DNA of 60,502 bases from an uncultured Microscilla sp. (GTDB lineage Bacteria > Bacteroidota > Bacteroidia > Cytophagales > Microscillaceae), in the NCBI RefSeq assembly GCF_947493425.1, contig NZ_CANLRP010000034.1, forward strand, positions 1-60,502, written 5' to 3'. Position numbers and translations under genes: made by a program. Of the stretch, positions 74-45,478 are shown piece by piece. Position 1 is the stretch's first letter. Each line of letters opens with the position of its first letter. The notes under the pieces were generated by a model that was not told the DNA's origin, searched no databases, and was given only the letters and a program-made list of their open reading frames with translations.

Positions 74-100
74 TGAGGAGGAATGGTGAAAAACAAAAAA

Positions 101-132
101 ATCAATGACTTTGGAAACCATTGATTTTTTTG
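101..132. terminator. Bidirectional rho-independent terminator hairpin just 3' of the MVP gene. The stem is atcaatg/cattgat and it has T-runs on both strands.
   Basis: Inverted repeat at 101-107 and 119-125, followed by ttttttt on the + strand and ttttttgttttt on the - strand. It lies 17 nt past the stop of the 149..2686 (-) CDS. Confidence 0.55.
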
Positions 133-148
133 CTGGGTAGTAGTTGGT

Positions 149-2686
149 CTAGTCTTCGTTTTCTTCTATTTCATCGCTTTCAGCCTCGTTTTCGAGCACG
201 TGGGCAAGCTTAGTACCCTTAAGCATATTGCTAAATACATGGGCTACGCTTTTACCTCCCAATATGGCAAGTGGAGACATAGATTGGGCTACTTTTTCGG
301 CCAGGGCTTTGTCAGCAAAAGATTGTAACGCTGCAATGAGTTTAGGCGATACGGCTTCAGCCTTTTGTACTACAGCTTCTACATCAGCACGCAAAAGCTC
401 CAACTCTTGTTGTAATTCTTTCTGGGCAATGTCCAGTAGTAAATCTTCTTCTTTTTGCTTTCGTTCCAGTTCTGCATCATTTATTTGAGTGAGCAGGCTT
501 TGCTCTTCCAGGTTGGCTTCCAGGTTACGTCTTTTCGACTGAATTTCAGTATTGATGCGACTTAGTATCAGTTCCAGTTCTTTTTCGGCTTCTTTTTTCT
601 CTAGTTCAAATTGTTTCTGCACAGTGACAGATTTAGTAGCTGAAATTTTTTGATTAATGTCTTCACTCTTTTGGGTGAATTCTAGTTTTCGCTTTTCAGC
701 GTCTATGCGCAAAGTTTGTTTGACTACTTCTTGTTGGGCAGAAATGAGCAAATTTTCAATGCTAATATCGCTTAGGCGAATGTCAAGTACTTCGAGGTCA
801 TAGATGTGTACATTGTTTTCTTCAAACAACCTCCCTGGACGTTTATTGCTCTTACTTGAGGCGCCCAATACTCCATTTCGTAAGATATCAATGCCATTGC
901 CGTAAAAATCCATAATTGTATGTTTTTTCACCAAATTGCGAATGAACGAACGCATATGGTCAGTTAAGAACTTGACGTAGTTTTGCACATTAAACCATTT
1001 CTCAGGATCGCCGGTAAAGTTTACTCTATAAGATAAAGTAATGCTTACCTGAGTAAAATCAGAAGATTCGGCTTTTACTATATCAGAGATTTTATTGTGC
1101 AAAGCGCGTAAATATACAGTGTCTATGGTGTTTTCGGTAGTTTTGGGAGTACCTGTAGAAAGTGTGATGGCTTCCAGACTTTCGTCATACTCCAATAAGT
1201 AAGTTTGAGGTCCTACAATAACCTTTCGTTGCCCAGTTTTACTCACCACCAAAATAGCGTAGCCTGTCCATAGATTAATGGTTACTGCGCCATCATACTT
1301 TGTGTCTAAGGTAATGGTACGAGGTGGGGTAAAAGTTTGGTCACGGGTAAACTCATCCCCGGCCATTTCTTTAGATACTTTTTCTTTCTTTTTTCGGCGA
1401 GGCTTTTCAGCAATTTCTTCATCAAGTGCTTCTGCTTCTACTGCTGCTGATGGCTCAGCCGATACCTCAAGATAACCCTCGGTAGATTTTCGTCTTTCAA
1501 GCTCACCTTTGAGGTGTTTGTTATACTCCAGTGCTTCGCTGTTGCCCGGAAACCACAATTTTACTTTTTTAGGATCAAGCACCCGTTTCACAAAAACGGC
1601 TTCGCGAGGATCGGGCAAAAACATAGCAGGTCCTTTTTTAAGCGATACTTTACCCGTTTTACGGTTGAGGTAATAACGTCCTTCACCCGCTGGGATAGCT
1701 ATGGCATAATGCCTTTCTTTATTCCCATATTTTATAATGGCATGTTCAGGGCGAGGGTAATAAATCATTTGTTCTTTACCTGTAATAAATAATTCTTCTC
1801 CTTCTTTGTAGGCCTGCCCGTTTTCTTCATAAGGTGCAATCACTTTGATATACAAGCCGCTCATTTCGTTGAGCTCTATTGCCTTAAATTTACGTGAGCC
1901 ATTTCGGTAGACAAACTCCTCGGTGGGTTGAGGAAAAACCACGGCAGGTCCTTGTATATAACGTTTATTGCCATCCTCATCCAGCAAAATACAATATTCT
2001 AATCGTTCTAATGTAACAGCTTCTCTCACATAGTTGCCATTGACATCACGCACTACTTCTATGCCAGTAGGAGGAATATAAAAAGAAACAGAGTCCCCTT
2101 TGATAATAAGCATTTTGCCCATAGTCAAGTCGGGCATATCTTCAATGTTGGTTACCTCAGCAGTTTCGCTTCCATCACTGTTTTCTTCTTCATCTTTGGG
2201 GTGTTCTGCTGAACTTTTGGTTTTTATCACTGCTTTTGCCCAGTTTTTATGGGCTTCGTCTTCGTCGTATACCCTTACAGCCAGGTATTGATTAGACCTG
2301 AGGTTGTGCCCCCTCAGTACTTTTACCATTTGCCCTGGCCAAAGCGCAAAATTGATAGGACCAGGAATGTTTACTTTACGTCCTACATTTAATGCAACCA
2401 AATTACTTACTGTACCATTTTTGGGTTGGGTGCCATCTTGAGGTGGGTTTTTCATGACCACATACCAGCCTTCAGGTGCAGTTGTAAAAGTCTGCAGAGA
2501 TTTATCCAGGGTACAACGGTCAAATTTCTTGCTTTGAGCGTCAAATATCACAGGTTTATCAGTATTCGCCAAACTGGTTTTGTAGGGACCAACATATACG
2601 TTGATATTCCCTTTGGTTTGGTCAGAAATAAAAGCAAATTCATTGGGGGTGAGCACCAAGTCGCGCTCGCGGTTTGAGTCTGACAT
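149..2686 (-). CDS. Major vault protein (MVP) homolog. It has N-terminal MVP repeat domains and a long C-terminal coiled coil (cap-helix-like).
   Basis: 845 aa, close to eukaryotic MVP size. Recalled similarity to human MVP includes VYVGPYKT vs VEVGPKTY, LFITGKEQMIYYPRPEHAII vs WLIRGPLEYVPSAKVEVV, RYYLNRKTGKVSLKKGPAMFLPDPREAVF vs [28 protein letters not shown], and EAITLSTGTPK vs FTVLSLSAGRPK. The C-terminal ~150 aa is a Glu/Leu/Lys-rich coiled coil like the vault cap-helix. Confidence 0.8.
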   Translation of the reverse strand: MSDSNRERDLVLTPNEFAFISDQTKGNINVYVGPYKTSLANTDKPVIFDAQSKKFDRCTLDKSLQTFTTAPEGWYVVMKNPPQDGTQPKNGTVSNLVALNVGRKVNIPGPINFALWPGQMVKVLRGHNLRSNQYLAVRVYDEDEAHKNWAKAVIKTKSSAEHPKDEEENSDGSETAEVTNIEDMPDLTMGKMLIIKGDSVSFYIPPTGIEVVRDVNGNYVREAVTLERLEYCILLDEDGNKRYIQGPAVVFPQPTEEFVYRNGSRKFKAIELNEMSGLYIKVIAPYEENGQAYKEGEELFITGKEQMIYYPRPEHAIIKYGNKERHYAIAIPAGEGRYYLNRKTGKVSLKKGPAMFLPDPREAVFVKRVLDPKKVKLWFPGNSEALEYNKHLKGELERRKSTEGYLEVSAEPSAAVEAEALDEEIAEKPRRKKKEKVSKEMAGDEFTRDQTFTPPRTITLDTKYDGAVTINLWTGYAILVVSKTGQRKVIVGPQTYLLEYDESLEAITLSTGTPKTTENTIDTVYLRALHNKISDIVKAESSDFTQVSITLSYRVNFTGDPEKWFNVQNYVKFLTDHMRSFIRNLVKKHTIMDFYGNGIDILRNGVLGASSKSNKRPGRLFEENNVHIYDLEVLDIRLSDISIENLLISAQQEVVKQTLRIDAEKRKLEFTQKSEDINQKISATKSVTVQKQFELEKKEAEKELELILSRINTEIQSKRRNLEANLEEQSLLTQINDAELERKQKEEDLLLDIAQKELQQELELLRADVEAVVQKAEAVSPKLIAALQSFADKALAEKVAQSMSPLAILGGKSVAHVFSNMLKGTKLAHVLENEAESDEIEENED

Positions 2687-3085
2687 ATTGTTTCGTCTTT
2701 TGATTGTTCGGTATCTGGTTTTTGAGCAGTTATATTTAGTATAATCAACACTGCTTTATAGTTGAATGAATTTACACAAAAATTTCACCTTTTTGAATAA
2801 TGACCACACTATTTGTTATTTATTCACCAAAAAGCATAAGGCAGCAACTAACCCAAAGTAGTGGTAAAACAGGAAATTTTATATTGTAAATATTTGATAG
2901 AAAAATTACCCAAGTTTACCCACTTTGCAGGTGCTTAGGGGGGAGTTTTGAGACCTAAATCAAAACAACTAGAGTGAGTTTTGAACTTATCGCCTAAAAT
3001 TTTCTATTTTCGCAGCATATTCTATCCTACATGTTGGAGAATGCATGTAGAGTAATTTATCATTGATAGTAGAAACCAAAGACTT

Positions 3086-6000
3086 ATGTTTGAGTTTAAG
3101 AAAATTAACAATATGGTAGGTTGGGCTATTTTTGCCATTGCTACCATAGTTTATATGCTGACTGTTCAGCGAACAGCCAGTTATTGGGATTGCGGCGAAT
3201 TTATTGCCTGTTCATATAAATTACAGGTTCCTCACCCGGCAGGAGCTCCTTTCTTTTTGTTGCTTGGGCGCATGTTTTCTTTCTTGGCTCTGGGCGATGT
3301 AACACAGGTAGCCTTTTGGATCAATACCATCTCAGCTTTAGCAAGTAGCTTTTCTATCCTGTTTTTGTTCTGGTCTATTACTATGCTAGGGCTTAAGCTT
3401 TTACCAGTTAAAAACGAGCAAGATTTATCTCCCAGCCAAATTATTATGTTAATGGGAGGAGGCGCTATAGGAGCATTGGTATATACTTTTTCCGATTCGT
3501 TTTGGTTTTCGGCAGTAGAAGCCGAAGTATATGCGATGTCCTCGTTTTTTACTGCCTTTGTTTTTTGGGCCATGCTTCGCTGGGAGCGTATAGACGACCC
3601 TCGTAGTTCTAACCGTTGGTTGATTTTAATTGCCTATATGATGGGCTTGTCTATTGGGGTACACTTGTTGAACCTGGTGGCAATTCCAGCCTTGGGTTTG
3701 GTATATTATTATAAACGTTACAATACCTACAACCTGCTAGGTATTGTGGCTGCATTGGCTGTAGGCGGTGGTTTGATTATATTGATTATGTACGGCATTA
3801 TCCCTGGTTTACCTACCTTGGCGGGTAACCTTGAAATCACCTTTGTCAATAGTTTTGGTTTGCCTTTTGGATCAGGTATTTTGTTTTTTATGGTAGTACT
3901 ATTGGGAGGCGTTACCTTTGGTGTGTACTACACGCAGAAAAAAGAAAAAGTATTGGCAAACACTGCCATGTTGTGCCTTACATTTGTTTTGTTTGGGTAT
4001 GCGTCTTACGGCATTGTATTGATTAGAGCCAACTATAACCCTCCTATCAATGAAAACGACCCCAGCGATATTGTACGTTATGTATCTTATTTGAAACGTG
4101 AACAATACGGTGATCGGCCTTTGGTACATGGGCGCACTTTTATGTCTCAAATTACTAAGCAAGACAGAGGAGAGGCAAAATACCGCAAGGATGACAAAAG
4201 TAAGCGTTATGAGATTTATGATTATAAGATTAAAAATACTTATGACAATACGATGTGGTTTCCTCGCATGTACAGTAAACAGTCCAATCACCCCGACTTG
4301 TACCGTGAACGTACTGGTTTAGCTAAAGGACAAAAACCCAGAACTATACATAACCTGAAGTTTATGTTTTCTTATCAGTTGGGGCATATGTATTGGCGGT
4401 ACTTTGGCTGGAACTTTATCGGACGAGAAAGCGACATTCAAGATGCTGGTGTAGCTACCTTTACCAGCCGTAGCGATTTGCCCGAAGGGATTGCTAAAAA
4501 CAAAGCACATAACAAGTTTTATGGCATACCACTTATATTAGGATTATTGGGGGTATTATTTATGCTCATGCGTAACCAAAGGGTAGGGTTAGTTACTGGA
4601 ATGTTATTTTTCCTTACTGGAATAGGCTTAGTACTTTACCTCAATTCGCCCCCGGTAGAGCCTCGCGAGCGCGATTATATATATGTAGGTTCCTTTTATG
4701 TGTTCGCCATTTGGGTAGGTTTTGGGGTCATGTTCATGGCAGAAGTCTTGCAAGGGGTGCTCAAAAAAGGATTGGCTGCACCAGTATTGGCAACTGCTAT
4801 CTCGTTAGTTGCCCCTGTGATCATGGCTCAGCAAGGTTGGGATGACCACGATAGATCGCGCCAATATCAATCTATTGAGTCTGCCAAAAACCTTTTGAAT
4901 TCGTGTGCCCCCAATGCTATTTTATTTACCGAAGGCGACAATGATACATTTCCGTTGTGGTATATACAAGAAGTAGAAGGCTTCCGTACCGATGTAAGGG
5001 TGTGTAACCTGAGTTTATTGGGTACTGCCTGGTATGCCCGCCAAATGACTCGTAAAACTTACGAATCGGAGGCTTTACCTATCACGTTGAAGCCTGAAAA
5101 TTACCAGACTGGTACTAACGACTACCTTACTTATTGGGCGGCAAATCAGGGAAGTCGATTCAACGAGCGAGTAGCAAATGGCATGCTAAAACAAGGCTTA
5201 AACCTAAATAGCTACATTGGTTTGTTGAATAAACAAGATAAACGATTGTATCAATCAAGGGGGAATGATGGTATTTATACATACCCTTCTAAACTATTGG
5301 CTATTAATCAAAACAAGGCAGCTATTATCAAGCAAAAAGATTTTGTTCCTAAAGATTTACACGATAAGATTCCATCTGTAATGATTTGGAATATGGGTAA
5401 ACAATACATTTATAAGCACCATTTGTTGATGTTGGATATTATTGCTACCAACGCCAAAAACGGCTGGAAGCGACCCATATATTTTACCAGTAATATTAGT
5501 GGTAATAATTCATTGAATCTTAAAGAGTTTATGCAGCTCGAAGGGTTGGCTTATCGCTTGTTGCCTGTACGTGTACCGGGAGCAAAAGATGGTTTTGTAA
5601 ATGCTGAACTGATGTATAAAAACATGATGCCTGTAAAGCTGGGTGGCATAAGCGATGGTAAAAACAAGGGATTTTTCTATCGTGGACTAGATGACCCCAA
5701 GGCATACCATGATGAAAACGCAAGGCGCTTTCCTACTACTACCCGTTCTTCTTTCCGACGTCTGGTGCAGCAGTTGATCAAAGAGGGTAAAATGGATAAA
5801 GCTAAAAAAGCAGCTAAATTCTGTTTAGAGGCAATTACTGATGAAGCAATTCCTTACAGTATGTTCTTTACACCTTTTATCGATGAGTTGTTTAAGGTAG
5901 GTTTGGAAAAAGAAGCACTTGAAATGGCACGAACAATAGGGCAAAGGGTAGAGCAAAAACTCAACTATATTTATGATAATAATTTGAGAAAAAGGAACCC

Positions 6001-6148
6001 TAACTCGTTGCGTTATGCCATGTACAATCTTTACTCTTTAGTAAATGCTTTGCAAGGTCAAAAAGGGAAAGAAGCTCAAGCATTGCATAAAAAATATGAC
6101 CAAGTTCAGAAGAACAATATGGGGCGATTTAGCAATGCCTTTGAATAA
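3086..6148 (+). CDS. DUF2723-family large polytopic membrane protein. It is a putative GT-C-fold (PMT/ArnT-like) glycosyltransferase.
   Basis: 1020 aa. The N-terminal ~560 aa contains at least 10 hydrophobic helices and a YWDCGEF acidic loop motif near the first helix, as in PMT/ArnT-type transferases. A large soluble C-terminal region follows. Size and architecture are typical of Bacteroidetes DUF2723 proteins. Confidence 0.65.
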   Translation: MFEFKKINNMVGWAIFAIATIVYMLTVQRTASYWDCGEFIACSYKLQVPHPAGAPFFLLLGRMFSFLALGDVTQVAFWINTISALASSFSILFLFWSITMLGLKLLPVKNEQDLSPSQIIMLMGGGAIGALVYTFSDSFWFSAVEAEVYAMSSFFTAFVFWAMLRWERIDDPRSSNRWLILIAYMMGLSIGVHLLNLVAIPALGLVYYYKRYNTYNLLGIVAALAVGGGLIILIMYGIIPGLPTLAGNLEITFVNSFGLPFGSGILFFMVVLLGGVTFGVYYTQKKEKVLANTAMLCLTFVLFGYASYGIVLIRANYNPPINENDPSDIVRYVSYLKREQYGDRPLVHGRTFMSQITKQDRGEAKYRKDDKSKRYEIYDYKIKNTYDNTMWFPRMYSKQSNHPDLYRERTGLAKGQKPRTIHNLKFMFSYQLGHMYWRYFGWNFIGRESDIQDAGVATFTSRSDLPEGIAKNKAHNKFYGIPLILGLLGVLFMLMRNQRVGLVTGMLFFLTGIGLVLYLNSPPVEPRERDYIYVGSFYVFAIWVGFGVMFMAEVLQGVLKKGLAAPVLATAISLVAPVIMAQQGWDDHDRSRQYQSIESAKNLLNSCAPNAILFTEGDNDTFPLWYIQEVEGFRTDVRVCNLSLLGTAWYARQMTRKTYESEALPITLKPENYQTGTNDYLTYWAANQGSRFNERVANGMLKQGLNLNSYIGLLNKQDKRLYQSRGNDGIYTYPSKLLAINQNKAAIIKQKDFVPKDLHDKIPSVMIWNMGKQYIYKHHLLMLDIIATNAKNGWKRPIYFTSNISGNNSLNLKEFMQLEGLAYRLLPVRVPGAKDGFVNAELMYKNMMPVKLGGISDGKNKGFFYRGLDDPKAYHDENARRFPTTTRSSFRRLVQQLIKEGKMDKAKKAAKFCLEAITDEAIPYSMFFTPFIDELFKVGLEKEALEMARTIGQRVEQKLNYIYDNNLRKRNPNSLRYAMYNLYSLVNALQGQKGKEAQALHKKYDQVQKNNMGRFSNAFE

Positions 6149-8124: not shown

Positions 8125-9216
8125 TTGCACACACACCATCTAAACAGAACTATGAAAAATATTATTTTAGACGAAGTAAAGGGGTTGATTCAAGACGAAA
8201 ATATTGGTGATGCTCTTCAAAAACTCAGTGGGTTTGTCGAAGAGCAACGTCAGGAAATGCACAATGTTTTGAGTATCCAACAGAGGTATTACAATGACTA
8301 CCTTAACCGTATTGACGACCTGTCAATGAGCGAAGAAATCCACTCGCAAATAAAAACTAATTTGTGCCATAGTTTGCTCAAAATAGTAAACAATATAGAA
8401 GAGACGACCGAAAAAGTAGCTGAGCCAAGCATAGCTCCCATGCCTAATAAGTTTGACATAGACTATGTACTACCTGAGCACAGTACTGTATTTATTATAA
8501 TCGATGCTGATACCCCTACCACAGCCGAAGACCTGATCAGTACAGTATACCACGATGAATCTTTTCAAGAGGCACAAGTGTTGATTGTAAATGTAGAGCA
8601 ATATGCGTATTTTGATGAGTTTTTGACCGATTTGCAAGCCAATCACCTAGAAGGCTATCCAATGAATGCTTATGGCAAAGATTGGGTGGTAGGCAATCAT
8701 ACCCGTTTTTTTAAGTCTTTTGTATTGCCACATCAATGGTTGGCTTCTCAAGGTGAAGAGAAAGTTAGTGACGAGAACGAAAAACCTGAGGAAGAAGGGC
8801 AGGTAAAAGCGACGACTACTGAGGAGGAAACAGGTGAATTGTTAGAAGCTAATACAGAGGATAAATCATTGGTCGATGCACGTTTACATATTCCCTTTAA
8901 GGACACAGGTATACACATCAAGTTTAAGTCATATTACGATTGGTGCGAGTGTAATTTTTGGGGAGTTGTTAATAGTGGTTTTGAGACTGCCTATGGTTTG
9001 TTTACCTCTGATGAGGCGGTTTTTCAAGATATTTTTTCGGGTGAATTTTCGTCAAAACTTACGGGTGAATTTTTTAGCTTGATTCAAAAAAATGCCCCTG
9101 ATTTGCCTTACAAAAAATACAGTGAAGTAAACCCTGATGACTATAAATATAAGCTTATCATTCAGCCTTATCAGCCTTTAGATAATGTACCCAACAAATC
9201 GGTTTTTATACTTTAG
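8125..9216 (+). CDS. Hypothetical protein. Its N-terminal helical domain resembles the effector-associated domains (EADs) of conflict-system proteins. The C-terminal ~250 aa is uncharacterized and has an acidic linker.
   Basis: The likely true start is the MKNIIL Met at 8152. The N-terminal pattern (IILDEVKGLIQDENIGDALQKL...LSIQQRYYNDYLNRIDDLSMSEEIHSQIKTNLCHSLLKIV) matches the leader...LSSRYNRLE...G.IS.EE...RN.I..ALL.LI style I recall for Bacteroidetes EADs. I recognise no catalytic motif. Confidence 0.5.
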   Translation: MHTHHLNRTMKNIILDEVKGLIQDENIGDALQKLSGFVEEQRQEMHNVLSIQQRYYNDYLNRIDDLSMSEEIHSQIKTNLCHSLLKIVNNIEETTEKVAEPSIAPMPNKFDIDYVLPEHSTVFIIIDADTPTTAEDLISTVYHDESFQEAQVLIVNVEQYAYFDEFLTDLQANHLEGYPMNAYGKDWVVGNHTRFFKSFVLPHQWLASQGEEKVSDENEKPEEEGQVKATTTEEETGELLEANTEDKSLVDARLHIPFKDTGIHIKFKSYYDWCECNFWGVVNSGFETAYGLFTSDEAVFQDIFSGEFSSKLTGEFFSLIQKNAPDLPYKKYSEVNPDDYKYKLIIQPYQPLDNVPNKSVFIL

Positions 9217-10931: not shown

Positions 10932-13688
10932 ATGGATAAATTTTCTTATATCGGAAACGCTGATGTGGCTTATGTAGAAGAGCTGTATCAGCAATATAAA
11001 AACGACCCCGAATCGGTCGACAGTACTTGGCAATATTTCTTTAAAGGATTTGATTTTTCGGTAGAGCAGTATGGTGAACCAGGTGAAAGTACCAATGGAC
11101 AAAACGGAGCTGCTGCTACAACCAAAGGTAAAGCCTCTAAAGCCGATATAGAGAAAGAAATAAGTGTTCGTGAGTTGATCTCGGCTTACCGTTCACGTGC
11201 CCACCTTTTGTCTAAAACCAACCCAGTAAGACCTCGCCGTGACCGTAGGGCTCGGCTTGAACTCAAAGATTTTGGTTTGACTGATGCCGACCTCAATACT
11301 ACCTTTGAGGCAGGACGTACTATTTTTGACCGTCCGGCTACTTTGAAAGAAATCATTGACGCCCTTAAGCACATTTATGAGCGCACTATTGGTTTTGAGT
11401 ATGCCTATATTCGTGAGCCAGAAGTATTGGAGTGGTTCAAACAAAAAATTGAGAGCGAGTCGCTCAACTTCAACCCATCGTCTGACTACAAAAAAAGAAT
11501 TTTATCTAAACTCAATGAGGCAGTAGCCTTTGAGAATTTTTTACATACCAAATACATTGGACAAAAACGCTTCTCGATAGAAGGGGGTGAAAGTACTATT
11601 CCAGCCTTAGACGCAGTGATCAACCGTAGCGCAGAGCTAGGAGTAAAAGAAGTAGTGATAGGCATGGCACATCGGGGACGTCTCAACGTGTTGGTAAACA
11701 TTATGGGTAAAACCTACGAAGATGTTTTCAACGAATTTGAAGGCGAAATGCCCGAAGAAGCAATGGGAGATGGTGACGTAAAATATCACTTGGGTTTTGC
11801 CACCGAAATAGACACTCCTGAAGGGCATAAAGTAAATTTACAATTAGCCCCTAATCCATCGCACCTTGAGGCAGTAGACCCCTTGGTAGAAGGATATGTA
11901 CGTGCGAAGTGTGACCGTATGTATGATGGTAATGTAGACCGAATATTGCCCATTCTGATTCACGGAGATGCAGCAATTGCCGGGCAGGGCTTGGTATATG
12001 AAATCACCCAAATGTCGAAACTGGAAGGCTACCATACTGGAGGAACTATTCATTTTGTGATTAATAATCAGGTAGGCTTTACCACCAATTTTGAAGACGC
12101 CCGTTCTAGTATTTATTGTACCGATGTGGCAAAAATGACTGACTCCCCTGTGTTACACGTAAACGGTGATGACCCTGAGGCAGTAGTATTTTGTTGTAGG
12201 TTGGCAGCTGAGTTTCGTGAGAAATTTAACCGCGACATTTTCATCGACTTAGTGTGTTACCGTAAGCACGGACACAACGAAAGCGACGAGCCTAAGTTTA
12301 CCCAGCCTGCGTTGTACAAGTTGATCTCTAAGCACCCCAACCCACGTGAACTATACTTGAGTCGTCTCAAAGAAAGTGGTGACTTGAACGCAAGTATTGC
12401 CAAAGAAATGGAGCAGGAGTTTAAGCAAATGTTACAGGATAGGCTCAATATGGTCAAGCAAAAAGCCGTCGCATATAAATTACAACCTGTAGAGAAAGAA
12501 TGGGAAGAGTTGCGTTGGTCTACTCCTACCGACTTTGACAGGGTATATGATACCAAAATCACGGCTGATATGGTGGATAAAATAGGGAAAGCATTGACCT
12601 TTTTGCCAAAAGGCTTCAAACCTATTCGTCAGATAGAAAAATTGCTCGAAAAACGCAAAGACATGTTCTTTGACAGCAAAATACTTGATTGGGCTTCTGC
12701 CGAATTGCTGGCGTATGGGTCTATACTTGCTGAAGGTAAGATTGTACGTTTTAGCGGACAAGATGTAAAACGTGGTACTTTCTCACATCGTCATGCTGTA
12801 TTACACGATGCTAACACAAGCGAGCCATTTTATAGCCTTGATTATATTCAGGAAGGGCAAGAGAAAATGCGTATTTATAACTCTCTCTTGTCTGAGTATG
12901 GTGTATTAGGTTTTGAGTTTGGGTATGCAATGGCAAACCCTCATGCGCTTACTATCTGGGAAGCTCAATTTGGCGATTTTGCCAATGGTGCACAAATTAT
13001 CATAGATCAGTTCATTACAGCTGTTGAGTCTAAATGGCAAAAAATGAATGGTTTGGTTATGTTGTTGCCCCACGGTTATGAAGGTCAAGGACCTGAGCAT
13101 TCAAGCGCCCGTTTAGAGCGTTTCTTGCAAATGTCGGCAGAATACAACATCATTGTAGCTAACCTGACTACCCCCGCCAATCTTTTCCACATTTTGCGTC
13201 GCCAGTTAGCCTGGGAGTTCCGCAAGCCATTGGTGATTATGTCGCCTAAGTCGTTATTGCGTGACAAGAAAGTAGTATCCTCTGTATCTGAGTTTACCGA
13301 TGGGCAGTTCCACGAGGTAATCGGGGACGATTATGTAGAGGCCAAGAAAGTGAAAAAAGTATTGTTGTGTACTGGTAAAATCTATTACGATTTGCTTAAA
13401 AAACAACAAGACGATAAACGCAAAGATGTAGCAATTATTCGTGTAGAGCAATTGCACCCATTCCCTACCAAGTCTATCCATTTGAAATTGGGTAAATATG
13501 TCAATGCCAAAACTTATTGGGTACAGGAAGAGCCAGTAAATATGGGAGCCTGGAGCTACATTCAGCGAGTATACCGTTACGACCAAATAGAGGTAATTGC
13601 CCGTAAGTCAAGTGCTTCACCTGCTACAGGTTATCATACGGTGCATAGTCAAGAGCAAGCAACCATCATAGAGGCGGCTTTTAAATAA
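10932..13688 (+). CDS. sucA: 2-oxoglutarate dehydrogenase E1 component.
   Basis: 918 aa. It has the conserved N-terminal MDKFSY...YVEELY region and the TPP-dependent E1 motifs GMAHRGRLNVL, HGDAAIAGQG, GFTT and EGQGPEHSSAR, and it has the expected length. Confidence 0.95.
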   Translation: MDKFSYIGNADVAYVEELYQQYKNDPESVDSTWQYFFKGFDFSVEQYGEPGESTNGQNGAAATTKGKASKADIEKEISVRELISAYRSRAHLLSKTNPVRPRRDRRARLELKDFGLTDADLNTTFEAGRTIFDRPATLKEIIDALKHIYERTIGFEYAYIREPEVLEWFKQKIESESLNFNPSSDYKKRILSKLNEAVAFENFLHTKYIGQKRFSIEGGESTIPALDAVINRSAELGVKEVVIGMAHRGRLNVLVNIMGKTYEDVFNEFEGEMPEEAMGDGDVKYHLGFATEIDTPEGHKVNLQLAPNPSHLEAVDPLVEGYVRAKCDRMYDGNVDRILPILIHGDAAIAGQGLVYEITQMSKLEGYHTGGTIHFVINNQVGFTTNFEDARSSIYCTDVAKMTDSPVLHVNGDDPEAVVFCCRLAAEFREKFNRDIFIDLVCYRKHGHNESDEPKFTQPALYKLISKHPNPRELYLSRLKESGDLNASIAKEMEQEFKQMLQDRLNMVKQKAVAYKLQPVEKEWEELRWSTPTDFDRVYDTKITADMVDKIGKALTFLPKGFKPIRQIEKLLEKRKDMFFDSKILDWASAELLAYGSILAEGKIVRFSGQDVKRGTFSHRHAVLHDANTSEPFYSLDYIQEGQEKMRIYNSLLSEYGVLGFEFGYAMANPHALTIWEAQFGDFANGAQIIIDQFITAVESKWQKMNGLVMLLPHGYEGQGPEHSSARLERFLQMSAEYNIIVANLTTPANLFHILRRQLAWEFRKPLVIMSPKSLLRDKKVVSSVSEFTDGQFHEVIGDDYVEAKKVKKVLLCTGKIYYDLLKKQQDDKRKDVAIIRVEQLHPFPTKSIHLKLGKYVNAKTYWVQEEPVNMGAWSYIQRVYRYDQIEVIARKSSASPATGYHTVHSQEQATIIEAAFK

Positions 13689-13710: not shown

Positions 13711-13750
13711 AAACCCCATTTAACATTAAGTTGAGTGGGGTTTTATAGTT
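13711..13750. terminator. Bidirectional terminator hairpin between the convergent sucA and sensor-phosphatase genes.
   Basis: aaacccca (13711-13718) pairs with tggggttt (13736-13743), followed by ttttatagtttta on the + strand and a T-rich run on the - strand. Confidence 0.5.
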
Positions 13751-16700
13751 TTATCCCCATCACCAAAATATCATCCCTTTGAGTGGTATTGTTCATATGC
13801 TCATCCAAATTTTTCTCTAGTATTTGTTGTTGTTCCGCCATTGGCTTCAATGCATGTTCTGCCAAGAGCTTTTTGAGTTTTTGTGAACCAAAGCTTTTTC
13901 TTGCTGCATTATTCTGATCGCCATATCCATCGGTGGTCAAAAATATTAAATCATCTCTGTGTAAAGTAAGTGTGTGTTCTTCAAAAACCTGGTGATTTCT
14001 GGGCACTATTCCAATAGAAATTCTACTACCTTTGACTTCACCAAATTCCTGGGTGCTGCTTTTGATATAATACATAGGGCGTTTGGCTCCCCCAAAAATA
14101 ACCTTTACAGCGCCATCAGGCAAATACTGTATATTGCACAGCGCCATATCCATGCCTGATTGATTCCCTGTTTTTTCTCGCTGTAAAGCGTGCTTTAACT
14201 CAAACTTTAGTGTTTCTAGTATTTGGGCAGGTTGAATGATATTTTTTTGGTGTACAATCTCATTCATCAAAGTATAACTCATCATACTCATAAAAGCCCC
14301 TGGCACTCCATGTCCGGTACAATCTATAGCAGCTACTAGCCTTACATCCTTGCCATCTTTAGTTTTATCTGCCCAGTAAAAATCTCCCGATACAATGTCA
14401 CGGGGACGAAAAAGCACAAAATAGTTCTTAAATATTCCCTGCATTCTGTCATTAAAAGGCAATATAGCATCTTGAATAAGCTTGGCCGCCTCTATGCTCT
14501 TTTTTACCTGAAGGTTTTTCTGATAAAGTTGTTGGTTTTTTTGTTCGATAAAGTCGCGTTGAGCAGTAATTTCTTCGTGTTGTTGTTGAAGCTCTTCGTG
14601 TTGTACCATAATCTCTTCTTGCTTGTGCTGAAGCTCAACAGTACGTTGTTGCACCTTTTTTTCAAGACTGGCTTTTTGTTTAAGCAACCGACTGGCATTG
14701 ATGCGTAAAACTATTAATACAAACAATATGGCACATACCACATACAAGGTATAAGCCCACCAGGTGCGGTGCCAGGGAGGGTAAATCTTGAACTTGAAAC
14801 GTGCAACTTGGCTTAGATCACCATGCGCATTTTTGGCCTTTACTTCAAAAACGTAATTGCCTTCAGGCAAATTGGTATAATTAGTATTGCGTTCTGTGCT
14901 CCATTTAGACCATTTTTCTTGAAAACCTTTTAGCCTAAACTGGTACTGGTTTTTGTTACTATGTTCATAAAACAAAGAAGCATAATCAAACCTGAGTGTG
15001 TTGAATCGATAATCAAGGGAGACAGGACGTAGGTTGTTTTCGGTAAAAAGAAGAGAATCATTATTAATGAATACTTTCCTAATAATGGTTTGATAAGTGC
15101 TGGGAGAACTCTTTTTCCATTGACCATCATATACTATCATAGTTTGATCTTTGGCTATTGCCACCCGCCCATCTTCTAACTCTATGATGGATTCACTATC
15201 GAGTGAATGTTGTATAGCTCTGAATGGTTTTTCTACGAGTGTATACCCTTTGTCAGGGGTTGCTTTTAACATGATCAACTTGACTTCATCAGGTTTTTTT
15301 ATCTGGATAAAGAGGTCTCCTTTTTTTGTTTCATATATGTAATATGTTTGCTTGCCTTTTGTGAGTGGGTGTAAAACAGGATGAGGGTGAAAACGTTTTT
15401 TTGCCCTATCAAGTGCATATATACCATCTGTTGTACCAAAAATTAGCTGGTCATTTTGTAAGCGAAATACTATATTACCTGTAGTAGAAGGTAAGCCATT
15501 CTTGGCTGTATATACTACTTGTTTTACCACACTATCTTTTGCGGCATTGAGCCACACCCTAAAAATACCCAACTGAAAGTCATGAATCCATAAACTTTCA
15601 TCTTTATCTTCTATAATAGAGTATATTTTTGCGGTTATTTTTTCGCCTTTTACCTTTTTCTTTATCCATTTCCCTTTTTCCTGAGTCATCAAAAACAGCC
15701 CTTGGTTATAGGTACCTATCAGTAGTTTAGAAGGATCGTTTTTTAGTGCGATAAGGCATTGTACGTAGTTTTGATCTATGAGTTTTTTAGGCTTCCCATT
15801 TTTCATTTCATAAATGGCAGCAGTATGTGCCAGGTAGAATTTACCTTGGTGTTCCAAAAAGTCCCATACTCCATCCTTGATTCCTTTTACTTCTTCAAAA
15901 CGACCTTTTTTGTTTAAGAATGAAAGCCCATTCATAGTACCTACATAGAGCGTTTGGTTATGATATGTCATCCTTAGAATTTGCCCAGAAAAGCCATGCC
16001 TTTTGTCCCAATAGGTAAAAGAGCTATTATTATGGATCTGCCCAATGCCTTTTTCACCCAAGGTCCAGATGTTACCTTCTTTATCAAAATCAAAATTGTA
16101 GATCCAGAGGGTGGGAGTGTCTCGATTAGAAGCAACAAAGCGTTGAATTTTACCATCTTTGCCCAATATATATAATCCTTTGTTTTTGATAGTAAGCGCA
16201 ATAGAGCCATTGTTGAGTACCTTGACATAATATACTGTAGCAATTATGTCTAATTTGGCAAAAGTGCTGTCGAGTTCAGTCTCGAAGGCTTCTTCTCTCT
16301 GAAATTTACCGTTTTTTAAGTACAACCAACGCATTTGATGGGCTTTGGCATCAAATGCAACCAAAGTATCTTGGCTATAATTGGTTATATGCCATATATT
16401 AGATAGGTTCTTTACTCCTTGAAGTTGATTAGTTTTTGTTAGTTTTTTTCCATTCCAAACAAATAAACTATTGCCTGCTTGTACATATACTTGATTATTA
16501 AAATGAAAGACTTGTTTTCTTATTTTTGCAATAGGGGCAAATTGCTCTTTATTATAAATTGTTGAGTCATTAGGACTTACATAAGTAAACTTACCGTTTT
16601 GATAAATCAATGTGTTTTTAAACCAATCTATAAAGGCAACACCTTTATCTAAGGGGGTTATATTACGAATTGTTTTAAATTTTTTCTGTTCTTTAGGGAT

Positions 16701-17048
16701 TGATGGCATCAAGGATACATACTTACGGTTTTGTCCAGTAGAGTCATACCCCAAATAACCCAATTCATTGTCGGAACCCACAAATAGGGTGTCGTTATAA
16801 TAACCAATAGCAAACACAAAACCTTTATTTTTTATTGGAAATTTACTCCATTTTTTGCCGTCATATTGTAGAATTCCAAAGTTATCGCCCACATATATCA
16901 TCCCTGTTTTATCTTGCGCCACCCCCCAGCTTTGATACCCTCCTTTATAGTCTTTGGGTAGGTGTTTGGTTACGTAGGGAGTTTGTGCCTGAGAGACAGT
17001 AGCGGCATAAACAAGTAAAACATTGATAATTAAGAACAACTTCATCAT
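13743..17048 (-). CDS. Sensor Ser/Thr phosphatase. It has a signal peptide, periplasmic two-component-regulator beta-propeller repeats (Reg_prop) plus a Y_Y_Y domain, one TM helix, a coiled coil, and a PP2C/SpoIIE-type phosphatase domain.
   Basis: 1101 aa. The N-terminal signal is MMKLFLIINVLLVYAATVSQA. Propeller-like repeats are repeated GxxxGLxxYDG/IW motifs. The TM helix is WWAYTLYVVCAILFVLIVL, followed by a QQ/EE heptad coiled coil. The C-terminus carries PPM motifs (GDFYW, DCTGHGVPGAFMSM, TDGYGDQ). Confidence 0.85.
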   Translation of the reverse strand: MMKLFLIINVLLVYAATVSQAQTPYVTKHLPKDYKGGYQSWGVAQDKTGMIYVGDNFGILQYDGKKWSKFPIKNKGFVFAIGYYNDTLFVGSDNELGYLGYDSTGQNRKYVSLMPSIPKEQKKFKTIRNITPLDKGVAFIDWFKNTLIYQNGKFTYVSPNDSTIYNKEQFAPIAKIRKQVFHFNNQVYVQAGNSLFVWNGKKLTKTNQLQGVKNLSNIWHITNYSQDTLVAFDAKAHQMRWLYLKNGKFQREEAFETELDSTFAKLDIIATVYYVKVLNNGSIALTIKNKGLYILGKDGKIQRFVASNRDTPTLWIYNFDFDKEGNIWTLGEKGIGQIHNNSSFTYWDKRHGFSGQILRMTYHNQTLYVGTMNGLSFLNKKGRFEEVKGIKDGVWDFLEHQGKFYLAHTAAIYEMKNGKPKKLIDQNYVQCLIALKNDPSKLLIGTYNQGLFLMTQEKGKWIKKKVKGEKITAKIYSIIEDKDESLWIHDFQLGIFRVWLNAAKDSVVKQVVYTAKNGLPSTTGNIVFRLQNDQLIFGTTDGIYALDRAKKRFHPHPVLHPLTKGKQTYYIYETKKGDLFIQIKKPDEVKLIMLKATPDKGYTLVEKPFRAIQHSLDSESIIELEDGRVAIAKDQTMIVYDGQWKKSSPSTYQTIIRKVFINNDSLLFTENNLRPVSLDYRFNTLRFDYASLFYEHSNKNQYQFRLKGFQEKWSKWSTERNTNYTNLPEGNYVFEVKAKNAHGDLSQVARFKFKIYPPWHRTWWAYTLYVVCAILFVLIVLRINASRLLKQKASLEKKVQQRTVELQHKQEEIMVQHEELQQQHEEITAQRDFIEQKNQQLYQKNLQVKKSIEAAKLIQDAILPFNDRMQGIFKNYFVLFRPRDIVSGDFYWADKTKDGKDVRLVAAIDCTGHGVPGAFMSMMSYTLMNEIVHQKNIIQPAQILETLKFELKHALQREKTGNQSGMDMALCNIQYLPDGAVKVIFGGAKRPMYYIKSSTQEFGEVKGSRISIGIVPRNHQVFEEHTLTLHRDDLIFLTTDGYGDQNNAARKSFGSQKLKKLLAEHALKPMAEQQQILEKNLDEHMNNTTQRDDILVMGIKL

Positions 17049-17164: not shown

Positions 17165-20100
17165 CTATAGCTGAATGCCCAATATTACAATATCATCACG
17201 TTGGTCTGCCTCTTCTTGGTGTTCAGTTTTAGCTTTCAACAACCGTGCACGTTGTACGTTTAGTGGTTCATGCATGATTTCTTTTAATAATGTAATGAAT
17301 TGCTTGGTTCCAAAAGATTTACGTTTGTTATTAGGGATATCTACAAATCCATCACTACTTAAATAAAGTATGTCATTGCGTTTGAGTTGAACCACATGGT
17401 TCTCTAACTCTTGTGTTACTTGCTTAGGCATCCAACCACCAATAAAAAACCTATTTCTTTGGATTTGATGCAACTTTTTTTGATGTGTATAATACAATGG
17501 ACGTTTGGCATTGCTGTATGTCAGCTCTACCTTGTCCGAGTCATCTATATATTGCACCCTACACAAGCATATATCCATACCATCATTATTATCTGATTCC
17601 TTCTGATGCAAGCCTTTACGAATGCCCTCTTGTATTTTAGATATGATCTTTTTGGGATCAAAAATTTTCTTTTCATTGACTATTTCGCTCAAAAGCCTGC
17701 TGCCAATCATGCTCATAAAAGCTCCTGGTACCCCGTGTCCGGTGCAGTCTACAGCTGCCACAAAACTATATACTTCAAAAGAAGGGACACTATCAATTAT
17801 GACGCGCTTCTTTACATGGCTCATCCAATAAAAGTCGCCAGAAACAATATCTTTGGGTTCGTAGATAATAAAATGATCATTAAAAATTTTCTCAAAGCTT
17901 TTGCTGCTGGGCAAAATGGCTGCTTGAATTTTTTGGGCATAACGAATACTGGCTGTAATTTCCTGGTTTTGGGTTTCTATTTTAAACTTTTGTAACTCTA
18001 TTTTAGTATAACTATCCGTATTTTGTAATGCTATGGTAATATATACTGCAAGGTTACGCAACAAGTTGAGGTGATAATTTGTATATACGTTGGTTTGTAA
18101 ACTTTGTACACTTACCAAGCCAATTACTTCTTGTTCGACAATAAGTGGTATACAAATGAAAGCATTTAACAATTCATCTTCTTGGTAACTATCCAGTGAC
18201 TCCACAAAATTGTGATACTCTTTATACACATCATTCACTATGATTTCTTTTTGGCGAAGTACACACAGCACCCCAAACCTGTTTTCATCGGTAGCAGGTA
18301 CTGTTAGTTGGGGCATTTTCTCGCCTAGATGTATGTAGTCGTTAAAAGTAATCGTGTGTGCTTTTGGATCATATAAGCCTATTCCAAACTCTGCAACGTC
18401 CATCAAGTTATTTACATTATTATACACAGTCTCTACTATCTGGCTTAACGATAGCTTTGAAGTGATTTCTTGCCCTATTTCACTCAATAGTTTTACATTC
18501 TGATAAGCTTGCTCTATTTCATCACTTTTATTTACTAGTTCATTGTTGACTGTTTTCAGGTTTTCAGCTTGTATCTGTATTTCTTCTTTTTGTTGTTCCA
18601 GTGCCGAATTTTTATGCTCAATAGCAGTATTAGCTTCTTTGAGGTTTTCAGCTTGTATCTGTATTTCTTCTTTTTGTTGCTCAAGTTCTGAGTTTTTTAG
18701 CAAGATTTCGTCGTTCTTATGGCGAATCTCTGTAGTACGGGCTTCCACTGTTTTCTCCAGTTTATCTTTTTGTTGCTCCAACCTTCGAGTATATAGTTTG
18801 ATGGTAACACCTATCAATATGATGCTCATGAATGTATATCCTGTATAAGCCCATATTGTACGGTGCCAGGGAGGGTGTATTTGGAACATGTAGGTTAACG
18901 CTGGACTTTTTTCTTGGTATAGGTTACGGGTTTGAATATGCAATGTATAATTACCTTCTCTTAGGTTGGTGTATTCCTTATAACTTTCCTTAGTCCAAGG
19001 CGACCATTCTTTGTCTAGTCCTGCCAGGCGGTAACGAAACTCGTTTTTGTGGTTATCAGCATAAAAGGTACTGCTTACATTAAACCTAAAACTATTATAA
19101 GTGTATTCAAATACGGGGTACTGATACCCTTGTTTGGGCAGACTTATCATTTGCCCTTGCGCATTGGCAAAAGTGCCTCCAAATATTATAGAGTCTTTTG
19201 CACCAGTAAGCGCTATTTCGCGTAATAATACTTTGAAAGGTTGTTTTATACGAGGTTGTTGGGGCGCATAATGAATTACCCCTTCCTTGGTGGCAAACAA
19301 TATATTTTTGTCATCTAATGGGTTTAAATGGGGGGCAAGTTTTTCTATAAACGAACCTCGTAACTTTCTAAAAGGAGCATTTATCTTTTTGTAGTTGCCA
19401 TTTACTTGTTTTTGTAACAAACCCACTTCCAGGTATTTATCTTTTACCTCGTTATGCACCTTCTGTGCCACATACCAAATTCCTTGTTGGGCATCACTGC
19501 GTAGATAAATCAACATTTTATGATCACCAATTAATTTGTTTAGCCTGGTTTCTCTCACCATTTTGTCTTGGGTTTCATCATGTAAGTATACCCCGTTTTC
19601 AGTGGCAAACATATTCTGACCGTTGACTTTAAACAAACGGTTGAATGTATTGGAAGGAAACCCCTTGGTTTTGTCATAAAACTTAATATTTACTACGCTG
19701 TCAAGCTGTGTATTAAGGGTGAGTTTATAGGCTCCATGTTGGTCGCTGCTCATCCAAATAATGCCTTTTTTACTTTCCTGTATATAACGCGAGTTTTTTG
19801 AAAATCCTTTGACCACATTTTTTACCCGCCACTGTTTGTTCTTCCATTCTAGTAAAAGTAAGCCTCTTTTACCTCCAGCCATCAACAAATTTGGGTGGTT
19901 TTTTAGAGAAATAATTGTCCATATATTGCCATTCGTCTTTTGTAATGACTGAGCTTTGAAAGACTTACGAGAAGTAGCAAATTTTAAAATGCCTGGATTG
20001 AATGCTGCTAAGAGTTGGTTTTTGAAGGTTTTAAATTGCCAGGTTTGATTCACTAAATTTGGAATGGTTTTAAACCAAATAGAGTCCTGTAGAGGGTTTT

Positions 20101-45168: not shown

Positions 45169-45275
45169 AGATAGTTGGCAATTATATACAAAAATATGTG
45201 ATGATGGGTGGTTGTTTAGAGGAGAAAAGAAGGGAGAAGAAAAAAGCATGACAGTATCGCACTGCTACAACCGGA

Positions 45276-45320
45276 TGCCCTTGCTGTCTTCCGACCCTGG
45301 GGGAGTTACAAGGAGCTAGT
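45276..45320. repeat. GC-rich conserved ~45-nt element, copy B.
   Basis: The sequence is gatgcccttgctgtcttccgaccctgggggagttacaaggagc. It lies ~110 nt upstream of the lipoprotein gene (-) and ~160 nt upstream of the DUF1573 gene (+). Confidence 0.7.
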
Positions 45321-45478
45321 CGCACTGCCACGCGCCACAAAAGTAGTAGTTATTATTTAATTGTCAAAATTTCGAATAAAAAAGCTATATTTTGTAACTT
45401 TACAGTATCAAAACTACAACTCAAACAGAGTTTATGCGTTTTGATTTTAGATTTTAAAAAAGAATTTCAAACACTATA

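Follow-up and report, generated by a model that had tools for sequence, protein, structure and literature searches.

The window analysed here, a contig of 60,502 nt from an uncultured Microscilla sp., carries near its left end a gene whose 845-aa product had been read, from the sequence alone, as a bacterial homolog of the eukaryotic major vault protein (MVP). The function of the vault has been an open problem for decades. The locus raises two questions: does the product belong to the MVP family, and would it, like eukaryotic MVP, build a shell?

The product is a bacterial member of the MVP family

The Pfam model MVP_shoulder (PF11978) matches residues 530-640 of the product with E=6.2e-29 and 100.9 bits, against a cut-off of 25. 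The match spans positions 2-118 of the 118 in the model, which is also matched by 37 of the 37 relatives scanned. Vault_3 likewise scores above its cut-off (residues 483-526, E=1.1e-8), while Vault, Vault_2 and Vault_4 were not detected in the Pfam scan. The HMM search that the sequence-only reading had proposed as a check thus finds both the shoulder and an MVP repeat. The NCBIfam scan of the product gave no meaningful matches. A homology to TolA has been proposed concerning the low-complexity coiled coil (Sokolskyi 2019, 10.1101/872010); no TolA family was significant in either the Pfam or the NCBIfam scan.

Comparison with solved structures gives the same answer. A phmmer search of the PDB returned MVP chains as its sole matches (E~1e-12), and a 131-sequence family profile aligned colinearly with MVP at E=1.6e-41, the profile-to-rat blocks being 468-789 to 458-812, 239-361 to 294-409 and 13-50 to 10-46. 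When the same 131-sequence alignment, which includes distant representatives, was used as input for AF2, the model reached a pLDDT of 82.9, compared with 52 from 37 close homologs. This single-chain model matches human, rat and rabbit MVP over its whole length (Foldseek E~1e-32), and its R1-R7 part matches MVP with E~1e-14. MVP ranks above every SPFH protein in the structure comparison, and no other family matches the first 530 residues. Aligned by structure, the product and mammalian MVP are ~17-20% identical; in the N-terminal half, the sequence resembles that of eukaryotic MVP only weakly. Taken together, an MVP shoulder, an N-terminal repeat stack, a long cap helix and full-length colinearity to solved MVP chains are all found in the product; sequence, profile and predicted fold support its being a bacterial MVP homolog, aligned with MVP along its length as first claimed and with no sign of an unrelated fold.

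This identity is correct, yet it is already known, as a near-identical ortholog was named earlier in the literature. The product is present in NCBI, letter for letter, under accession WP_299456907.1 ('SPFH domain-containing protein [uncultured Microscilla sp.]'). Its homologs number more than 6700, and conservation of the N-terminus sets in at about residue 6. Its ortholog in Microscilla marina ATCC 23134, A1ZGE7 (EAY30564.1 / WP_002694825.1), is 97% identical in amino acids over the full length, has 847 aa rather than 845, and is titled 'Major vault protein shoulder domain-containing protein'; it was named a putative bacterial MVP homolog by Daly et al. 2013 (PMC3762200) and by Sokolskyi 2019 (10.1101/872010). 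A codon-aware comparison of the two genes gives nucleotide identities of 96.8, 99.1 and 76.0% at codon positions 1, 2 and 3, so that about 24% of third positions differ, which indicates strong purifying selection on the gene. An identity of 84% for the CDS, obtained from a MAFFT global nucleotide alignment, was discarded as spurious because of a downstream indel.

The largest Kyte-Doolittle value in any 19-residue window of the product is 1.03, so there is no transmembrane segment or hydrophobic anchor, and no signal peptide is evident in the 845 residues. As judged from these features, the protein is soluble and cytoplasmic.

Table 1. Features of the MVP gene, its product and its flanks. Coordinates are positions in the window.
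Feature	Residues	Position	Strand	Basis or remark
CDS of MVP-family protein, 845 aa, ATG start		149..2686	-	ORF listing; stop codon 149-151
Six beta-sandwich vault-type repeats	8-370	1577..2665	-	Approximate limits: R1 8-58, R2 62-128, R3 129-215, R4 222-266, R5 267-322, R6 326-370
Acidic disordered insert within R3	158-188	2123..2215	-	Net charge -10
Two helices (372-399), then charged linker	372-458	1313..1573	-	AF2 secondary structure
Last repeat R7 (= rat R9)	459-528	1103..1312	-	Vault_3 483-526; aligns with human 477-520
MVP shoulder, SPFH/Band-7-like domain	530-640	767..1099	-	
Single 136-aa helix, cap-helix equivalent	641-776	359..766	-	AF2
C-terminal region: short helices, conserved motif, acidic tail	777-845	152..358	-	
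Intrinsic-terminator-like hairpin with A7 and T7 flanks		92..134	-	14 nt past stop codon; dG, shuffles
Conserved upstream block of 21 nt, AAATTTTT[G/A]TGTAAATTCATT		2765..2785	-	79-99 nt before ATG
Divergent neighbour, PF11028 TMEM260-like (formerly DUF2723)		3086-6148	+	E=1.8e-74

Domain architecture

The order of domains (Table 1) is that of rat and human MVP (PDB 4V60, 6BP7 and 9BW5, among others): beta-repeats, an SPFH-like shoulder, a long cap helix and a C-terminal segment. Eukaryotic MVP measures 861-893 aa, a length similar to the 845 aa of the protein studied here. In the model there appear to be seven beta-repeats, as against nine in rat MVP, and profile offsets together with repeat parsing indicate that it lacks two of the repeats among rat R2-R5. 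Conservation is 0.6-0.8 across the repeats and the shoulder, and is low only in two disordered inserts (residues 158-188 and 401-458), by which the Microscilla protein differs from eukaryotic MVP. The former has a pLDDT of ~50 and a block conservation of 0.10, and varies across the family. The latter lies in the linker of ~55 aa that follows the two helices; this linker contains KPRRKKKEK and is disordered, with a pLDDT below 50 at about 408-455 and a conservation of 0.15-0.19 over residues 372-458. We take its position to parallel the disordered loop of R8 in the rat crystal structure.

By structure comparison, the shoulder falls within the SPFH fold superfamily. The helix that follows is equated with the cap helix of MVP by a profile alignment that is continuous through rat residue 812. 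Hence, the C-terminal cap-helix-like segment of the sequence-only reading holds as a single helix, at 136 aa slightly below the ~150 given there and below the ~155 aa of eukaryotic MVP. Its heptad/FFT periodicity is not interpretable, the strongest peak lying at ~2.25 residues. Beyond it, the bacterial family has a motif of invariant columns, P781...Q788-x-F790-x-D792...P805-L-x-I-L-G-G-x-S813. The C-terminal 70 residues have low pLDDT and no significant profile alignment to the eukaryotic cap-ring, and region 777-845 may correspond to that ring.

Keyhole loop and nucleotide pocket

Repeat R7 contains an invariant 'keyhole' loop, S510-x-G512-x-P514-K515, which is common to eukaryotic MVP and the Microscilla protein. 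S510 and K515 are invariant in the 131 sequences, and K515 corresponds to human K506. Human MVP has an NAD+/ADP-ribose pocket at the shoulder (PMC12280208). In the 131-sequence alignment, the positions aligned to human R507, P508, H509, R511, W545, P565 and K573 are not conserved; that aligned to human R504 is basic (K or R) in 67 of the 131 sequences and T in the Microscilla protein. R527 and K532 are further basic residues close to the loop. The alignment thus suggests that the S-x-G-x-P-K loop is kept but that most residues of the human NAD+ pocket are replaced.

A gene that stands alone

The 11.8 kb shared in synteny with M. marina ATCC 23134 are 93% identical, and there too a TMEM260-like GT-C enzyme and a PolX/PHP gene lie upstream of the MVP gene. 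The divergent DUF2723 neighbour reported from the sequence is confirmed by its match to PF11028 (Table 1). When ORFs around the gene in 82 loci were clustered by BLASTP, no neighbour family showed conserved linkage to it. In 80 loci, the families that recur are generic (histidine kinase/response regulator, subtilisin-like protease, ABC ATPase, NHL-repeat protein, CorA); none is present in more than 13 loci, and their positions vary. Same-strand neighbours within 60 bp are found upstream in 4 of 68 cases and downstream in 3 of 64. With this rarity, the lack of a recurring partner and a conserved terminator hairpin, the claim that the gene is monocistronic is supported.

The eukaryotic particle consists of MVP, TEP1, PARP4 and vault RNA; at the Microscilla locus, no such partner is evident nearby. 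No TROVE-, NACHT/WD40- or PARP/vWA-type neighbour recurs in the 80 loci. Rfam at the gathering threshold found only SRP RNA in the 60.5-kb contig and nothing close to the MVP gene, and in E-value mode near the MVP gene it gave chance-level matches on hairpins only. PADLOC defence models yielded 0 families at E<=0.1, and the product has no significant match in PHROGs.

The terminator hairpin has its core at 101-132 and extends to 92-134 when the A and U tracts are counted in. With a dG of -16.2 kcal/mol (z -4.2), it is more stable than all of 200 shuffles; a simple, GC-demanding terminator scan missed it because the stem is AT-rich. M. marina retains the arms of the stem and the runs beside them despite an adjacent 186-bp insertion, directly past the MVP stop codon, that is absent here. 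The terminator hairpin read from the sequence is therefore real, whereas 'bidirectional' describes only its structure: the next gene downstream in M. marina, a TetR gene, is oriented like the MVP gene. In the present assembly, the contig ends 148 bp past the stop codon.

Upstream, the 21-nt block is the sole extended block that also occurs at two loci from more distant Microscillaceae, and we propose it as a possible promoter or operator element. The Bacteroidetes -33/-7 promoter (TTTG...TAnnTTTG) had no clean match upstream when searched by eye, and a sigma-70 scan returned 10 sites, against 7.5 expected from shuffles.

Family distribution

The sequence-only reading had called bacterial MVP homologs sporadic, which is too narrow. 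A pattern-limited scan of 185,579 species genomes found relatives in at least 357, from about 10 phyla that include Bacteroidota, Riflebacteria, Sericytochromatia, Chloroflexota, Desulfobacterota, Myxococcota, Gemmatimonadota and Vulcanimicrobiota, and an exhaustive search gave 640 clusters (50% identity) at E<=1e-30. Identity across phyla is 57-62%. The Microscilla protein belongs to the 'chemotrophic-bacteria' clade of the family.

The carriers are heavily gliding or filamentous organisms: Microscilla, Bernardetia, Thermoflexibacter, Saprospira, Desulfonema, Anaerolineae/Caldilinea, myxobacteria and Moduliflexus. This lifestyle was also pointed out by Sokolskyi 2019 (10.1101/872010).

Would the protein build a shell?

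We consider it somewhat probable (about 0.6) that this soluble MVP-family protein, encoded by a stand-alone gene, assembles into a vault-like shell. A large number of copies would line up laterally, joined by their repeats and shoulders, with their cap helices bundled together. The thin-walled, closed cup or shell that this would form would resemble a vault but be shorter than that of eukaryotes. The gene would be transcribed alone, from its own promoter to its own hairpin terminator. Since no cargo or partner is encoded alongside, any content would be non-specific or encoded at other places in the genome, and a sequestration function, like the oligomeric cage itself, is put forward here as a proposal.

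Shell assembly is plausible on several grounds. The cross-phylum identity, the 97% amino acid identity to M. marina set against 76% at third positions, and the conserved repeats and shoulder amount to a constraint typical of a shell protein that is all interface. For the M. marina ortholog, Daly et al. 2013 (PMC3762200) used I-TASSER and RosettaDock and predicted an MVP-like fold and MVP-like docking. MVP homologs of Asgard archaea have a prokaryotic MVP fold with cap helix and shoulder, and were modelled as closed cups with five repeats, the cages being proposed from modelling alone (Nat Microbiol 2026, PMC12962969); the Microscilla protein shows seven apparent repeats and comes from a different domain of life. 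A literature search returned no experimental report on the assembly of any bacterial MVP. With two fewer repeats and the two disordered inserts, packing of the D39 type could be altered or prevented. The weak N-terminal similarity to eukaryotic MVP, the replaced residues of the NAD+ pocket, the lack of vault RNA or TEP1- and PARP-like partners close to the gene and the low pLDDT at the C-terminus also weigh against a vault-like shell.

The NCBI name of the product points to another possibility, namely a scaffold of the SPFH/Band-7 type sitting on the cytoplasmic membrane as a ring or dome, with the repeats as an accessory stalk and no free vault. Proteins such as HflK/C, QmcA, flotillin, prohibitin, erlin and stomatin use the same shoulder fold and a long helix for closed domes, and the cages of HflK/C and flotillin likewise close through a C-terminal helical bundle. 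Moreover, Band_7 scores 22.4 bits, just under its cut-off of 23.6, and 17 of 37 relatives match it. These cage proteins, however, are membrane-anchored and lack an N-terminal repeat stack, whereas the Microscilla protein has ~530 residues of MVP-type repeats and no anchor anywhere; no NfeD or FtsH partner gene lies near the MVP gene, the shoulder model outscores Band_7 by 100.9 to 22.4 bits, and MVP outranks all SPFH proteins in structure. We regard a membrane scaffold as unlikely. A little less unlikely is that the MVP fold serves bacteria without closed cages, for example in a cytoskeletal or gliding- or filament-associated scaffold or adaptor. The lifestyle of most carriers would suit this, although that correlation is anecdotal, and the differing repeat number and large inserts could favour other assemblies. 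Against it, there is no conserved linkage to motility or other genes, and the cap helix and conserved C-terminal motif, the elements that close the eukaryotic cage, are kept.

Recent acquisition from a eukaryote, or contamination, is very improbable. MVP is best known from eukaryotes, and Daly et al. 2013 (PMC3762200) raised eukaryote-to-bacterium transfer for cyanobacterial homologs. In the present case, however, the tree, in which clades largely correspond to phyla, places the protein inside Microscillaceae and Cytophagales, and the gene has a GC of 0.413 (neighbours 0.40) and a GC3 of 0.365, like its neighbours, so that recent horizontal transfer is unlikely and a recent eukaryotic source is effectively refuted. 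The low identity to mammalian MVP, the synteny with M. marina and the thousands of prokaryotic-type homologs argue the same way. The window is a whole contig, so there is no DNA beyond its left edge, where the sequence-only reading had proposed to look for a horizontal-transfer signature.

To return to the shell, the wider proposal that the seven-repeat clade builds true, free vault-like nanocompartments in gliding and filamentous bacteria, the family being an old, mostly vertical bacterial invention of about 10 phyla, is tentative, and we hold it to be somewhat less than an even bet. If it is true, bacteria would be a source of the eukaryotic vault, and a genetically tractable species such as M. 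marina ATCC 23134 would offer a model for vault function, permitting clean genetics and simple reconstitution. This opportunity has been recognised since 2013 for the same ortholog, of which the present gene is one further copy. What our analysis adds is that the breadth and conservation of the family go well beyond the 'a few bacteria' of the literature ('few Bacteria', 2026), that the bacterial gene travels without operon partners, and that the protein seems to combine seven repeats with a conserved keyhole loop, most residues of the human nucleotide pocket apparently not being kept. Finally, MVP homologs from human-gut phages have been reported to cluster with bacterial MVPs and to share their fold (bioRxiv 10.1101/2023.11.10.566534); the Microscilla gene, in contrast, lies in a chromosomal, syntenic, non-phage context.

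Membership of the MVP family

By three independent lines, which include curated HMMs and the sequences of solved structures, the window protein is a homolog of major vault protein (MVP). Pfam MVP_shoulder matches residues 530-640 nearly end to end (E=6.2e-29) and Vault_3 matches residues 483-526 above its gathering score; Band_7 scores slightly under the Pfam cut-off, and the same Pfam pattern is found in 37/37 close relatives. Searched against PDB sequences, the single window sequence retrieves MVP chains only (E~1e-12), and a 131-sequence family profile searched against PDB chains reaches MVP with E=1.6e-41. Furthermore, this profile aligns colinearly with rat MVP (13-50 with rat 10-46, 239-361 with rat 294-409, and 468-789 with rat 458-812). 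The protein is almost certainly a true family member with the MVP fold. The sequence-only reading, which had named it a bacterial MVP homolog and proposed an HMM search, was correct in observation and interpretation, by homology, fold and domain order, with both MVP models above the Pfam threshold.

The window is a complete contig of 60,502 bp, so there is no flank past its left edge. The exact public match is WP_299456907.1, "SPFH domain-containing protein [uncultured Microscilla sp.]", and the nearest relative is EAY30564.1 / UniRef100_A1ZGE7 of Microscilla marina ATCC 23134 (97% identity, full coverage). The 11.8 kb around the gene is syntenic between the two genomes at 93% nucleotide identity. 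For the MVP gene itself, protein identity is 97% but identity at third codon positions no more than 76%, which indicates strong purifying selection. The family is already described, and the window protein is essentially one already named; the finding is of value for the question of whether bacteria have vaults, rather than for any feature peculiar to the window. No experimental study of a bacterial MVP came up in a literature search.

Domain architecture

Repeat limits were parsed from the secondary structure of an AF2 single-chain prediction (the model) plus a recurring sequence motif, and suggest seven beta-repeats (R1-R7) as against nine in rat MVP. Profile-profile comparison separates two classes, {R1, R4, R6, R7} and {R2, R3, R5}, the strongest links being R1-R6 (93% probability) and R3-R5 (81%). 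The offsets of the profile-to-rat alignment suggest that R1 corresponds to rat R1 and R4-R7 to rat R6-R9, so that two of rat R2-R5 would be without a bacterial counterpart. The C-terminal ~70 residues are modelled with low confidence, yet they hold positions invariant among close relatives and end in an acidic tail. No hydrophobic segment is present in the window protein (highest 19-residue Kyte-Doolittle mean, 1.03), and it is therefore predicted to be soluble and cytoplasmic.

Features of the window protein (residues; repeat limits approximate and predicted) and of the two Microscilla loci (nucleotides; L001, M. marina)
Feature	Position	Remarks
R1	8-58	beta-repeat
R2	62-128	beta-repeat
R3	129-215	beta-repeat
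R4	222-266	beta-repeat
R5	267-322	beta-repeat
R6	326-370	beta-repeat
R7	459-528	beta-repeat
Acidic insert	158-188	disordered, poorly conserved
Two helices	372-399	before charged linker
Charged linker	~401-458	KPRRKKKEK; disordered, poorly conserved
Single helix	641-776	136 aa, after shoulder, AF2 model
MVP-family ORF	149-2686 (-)	ATG start, 845 codons
Terminator-like hairpin	92-134	A7 and U7 flanks; dG -16.2 kcal/mol, z=-4.2
Second hairpin	58-84	dG -21.7 kcal/mol, z -6.5
M. marina insertion	L001 12545-12730	~186 bp directly after MVP stop; missing at window ~140-148
Upstream block	2785-2765	21 nt
MVP/TMEM260-like spacer	2687-3085	399 bp
EAD11 protein	8125-9216 (+)	363 aa; N-terminal EAD11, E=1.7e-6
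2-oxoglutarate dehydrogenase E1	10932-13688	
Giant sensor	13743-17048 (-)	1101 aa
Giant sensor	17165-21184 (-)	1339 aa; includes GAF
2-oxoglutarate dehydrogenase E2	21808-23364	
Small SRP RNA	45242-45340 (-)	Bacteroidales-type, RF04183, 64 bits
Seven tandem ORFs	L001 18348-22504	same strand, 132-135 aa, ~640-bp spacing

Human MVP has a binding site for NAD+, ADP and ADP-ribose where neighbouring shoulders meet (PMC12280208; also 10.64898/2026.05.01.722283). We carried the human pocket residues onto the 131-sequence family alignment via HMMER. The S-x-G-x-P-K loop is kept, with S510 and K515 fixed in every sequence and G512 and P514 in nearly all; these four correspond to human S501, K506, G503 and P505. 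The family positions aligned to human R507, P508, H509, R511, W545, P565 and K573 hold other residues, and that of R504 is K or R in 67/131 sequences and T in the window protein. Other basic residues, R527 and K532, are common near the loop.

Assembly and alternative readings

On the reading with the best support, the MVP-family product would be a soluble shell subunit that assembles laterally through its repeats and shoulder, with the cap helices bundling to close the assembly; a shorter vault-like cup or shell would result, from a gene expressed alone, with no cargo gene dedicated to it. In this inferred scheme the protein would oligomerise, close into a cage and perhaps sequester material, and we give a closed vault-like assembly of the window protein a probability of roughly 0.55.

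A membrane-associated dome of the SPFH type, the domain named in the public annotation, is improbable, as the protein has no membrane anchor. A structural role other than in a cage, connected with a gliding or filamentous lifestyle (the gliding link is pointed out in 10.1101/872010), is unlikely. A recent transfer from a eukaryote is extremely improbable: the protein groups with M. marina inside Microscillaceae, and the GC (0.413) and GC3 (0.365) of its gene match those of neighbouring genes. On the same two observations, neither recent horizontal transfer into this genome, a signature of which the sequence-only reading had proposed to look for, nor a eukaryotic origin of this copy is supported.

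Distribution

A pattern-limited scan with one genome per species found MVP relatives in at least 357 genomes. On the Bacteroidota side, the best 80 of these include Cytophagales, Saprospiraceae and Bacteroidales; the others are Riflebacteria, Ozemobacteraceae, Sericytochromatia, Anaerolineae, Caldilineae, Thermoflexales, Desulfonema, Desulfococcaceae, Myxococcota, Gemmatimonadota, Vulcanimicrobiota, Moduliflexus and one Bacillota MAG. Outside Cytophagales, these 80 are 56-62% identical to the query; for a protein of 830 aa, such identity between Bacteroidota and Chloroflexota, Myxococcota or Riflebacteria is unusually high. In an exhaustive HMMER search, 1325 clusters at 50% identity pass E<=1e-3, and 640 remain at E<=1e-30. 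The neighbour-joining tree groups mostly by phylum, except for a Gemmatimonad within Myxococcota and Desulfobacterota amid Chloroflexota.

The M. marina protein is listed among bacterial MVP homologs by Daly et al. (2013; PMC3762200) and was also examined by Sokolskyi (2019; 10.1101/872010), who set a chemotroph clade (Cytophagales, Myxococcales) apart from a cyanobacteria-plus-eukaryote clade. According to a 2026 paper, Asgard homologs have five repeats, and prokaryotic homologues are still said to be known "in only a few Bacteria" (PMC12962969). Carriers among the 80 loci are mostly filamentous or gliding lineages, an anecdotal correlation that widens Sokolskyi's to Riflebacteria, Sericytochromatia, Vulcanimicrobiota and Moduliflexus. 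Phage MVPs are reported to nest among bacterial ones (2023 preprint, 10.1101/2023.11.10.566534). Harvfovirus sp. A0A3G5A4K1 (BFVD, 802 aa, "prohibitin domain-containing protein") gives a Foldseek alignment of 901 columns with the model (E=1.7e-10) and may be an MVP-like protein of a giant virus; the remaining viral matches cover the SPFH part only.

Gene neighbourhood and transcription

The divergent neighbour, previously read as a putative DUF2723 GT-C enzyme, is indeed a 1020-aa TMEM260-like (formerly DUF2723) GT-C protein (E=1.8e-74), and this gene pair is confined to Microscilla among the loci compared. Across 80 loci of other genomes, the only recurrent neighbours are generic ones (signalling, protease and transporter genes), and their positions vary. 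Adjacent genes lie on both strands about equally often, with median gaps of 106-282 bp, and same-strand neighbours within 60 bp number only 4/68 upstream and 3/64 downstream. Hence, genes of the family usually form a transcription unit of their own, in keeping with the earlier view of the gene as monocistronic.

The bidirectional terminator earlier placed at 101-132 stands as a hairpin, with arms kept in M. marina despite the indel just upstream of it, while "bidirectional" reflects symmetric A/T flanks only; in M. marina the next gene past it, a TetR, shares the orientation of the MVP gene. A simple terminator scan missed the hairpin because its stem is AT-rich. Just past it lies a second, stronger hairpin with a perfect 11-bp stem (TCACCATTCCT...AGGAATGGTGA), the distal arm of which is not kept in M. 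marina.

The upstream block is the only extended element that is shared with more distant Microscillaceae and is a candidate promoter or operator. The spacer is 96-98% identical to M. marina (100% over the 137 nt closest to the glycosyltransferase start), whereas identity at synonymous (third-codon) sites in the genes on either side is just 76-89%; it is therefore constrained or recently exchanged, possible causes being divergent promoters, a long 5' UTR or an ncRNA.

The EAD11 (effector-associated domain 11) gene lies two genes away from the MVP gene, identically in M. marina, and no such neighbour was seen at other MVP loci. Descriptions of EAD domains come from conflict systems centred on NTPases. 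The adjacent giant sensors, both with Y_Y_Y/Reg_prop and a C-terminal SpoIIE (PP2C phosphatase), are flanked by 2-oxoglutarate dehydrogenase E1 and E2. Past the point matching the window's left end, seven tandem M. marina ORFs, with no Pfam match, look like a paralogous gene array. Apart from the small SRP RNA, no Rfam family passes the threshold anywhere in the contig.
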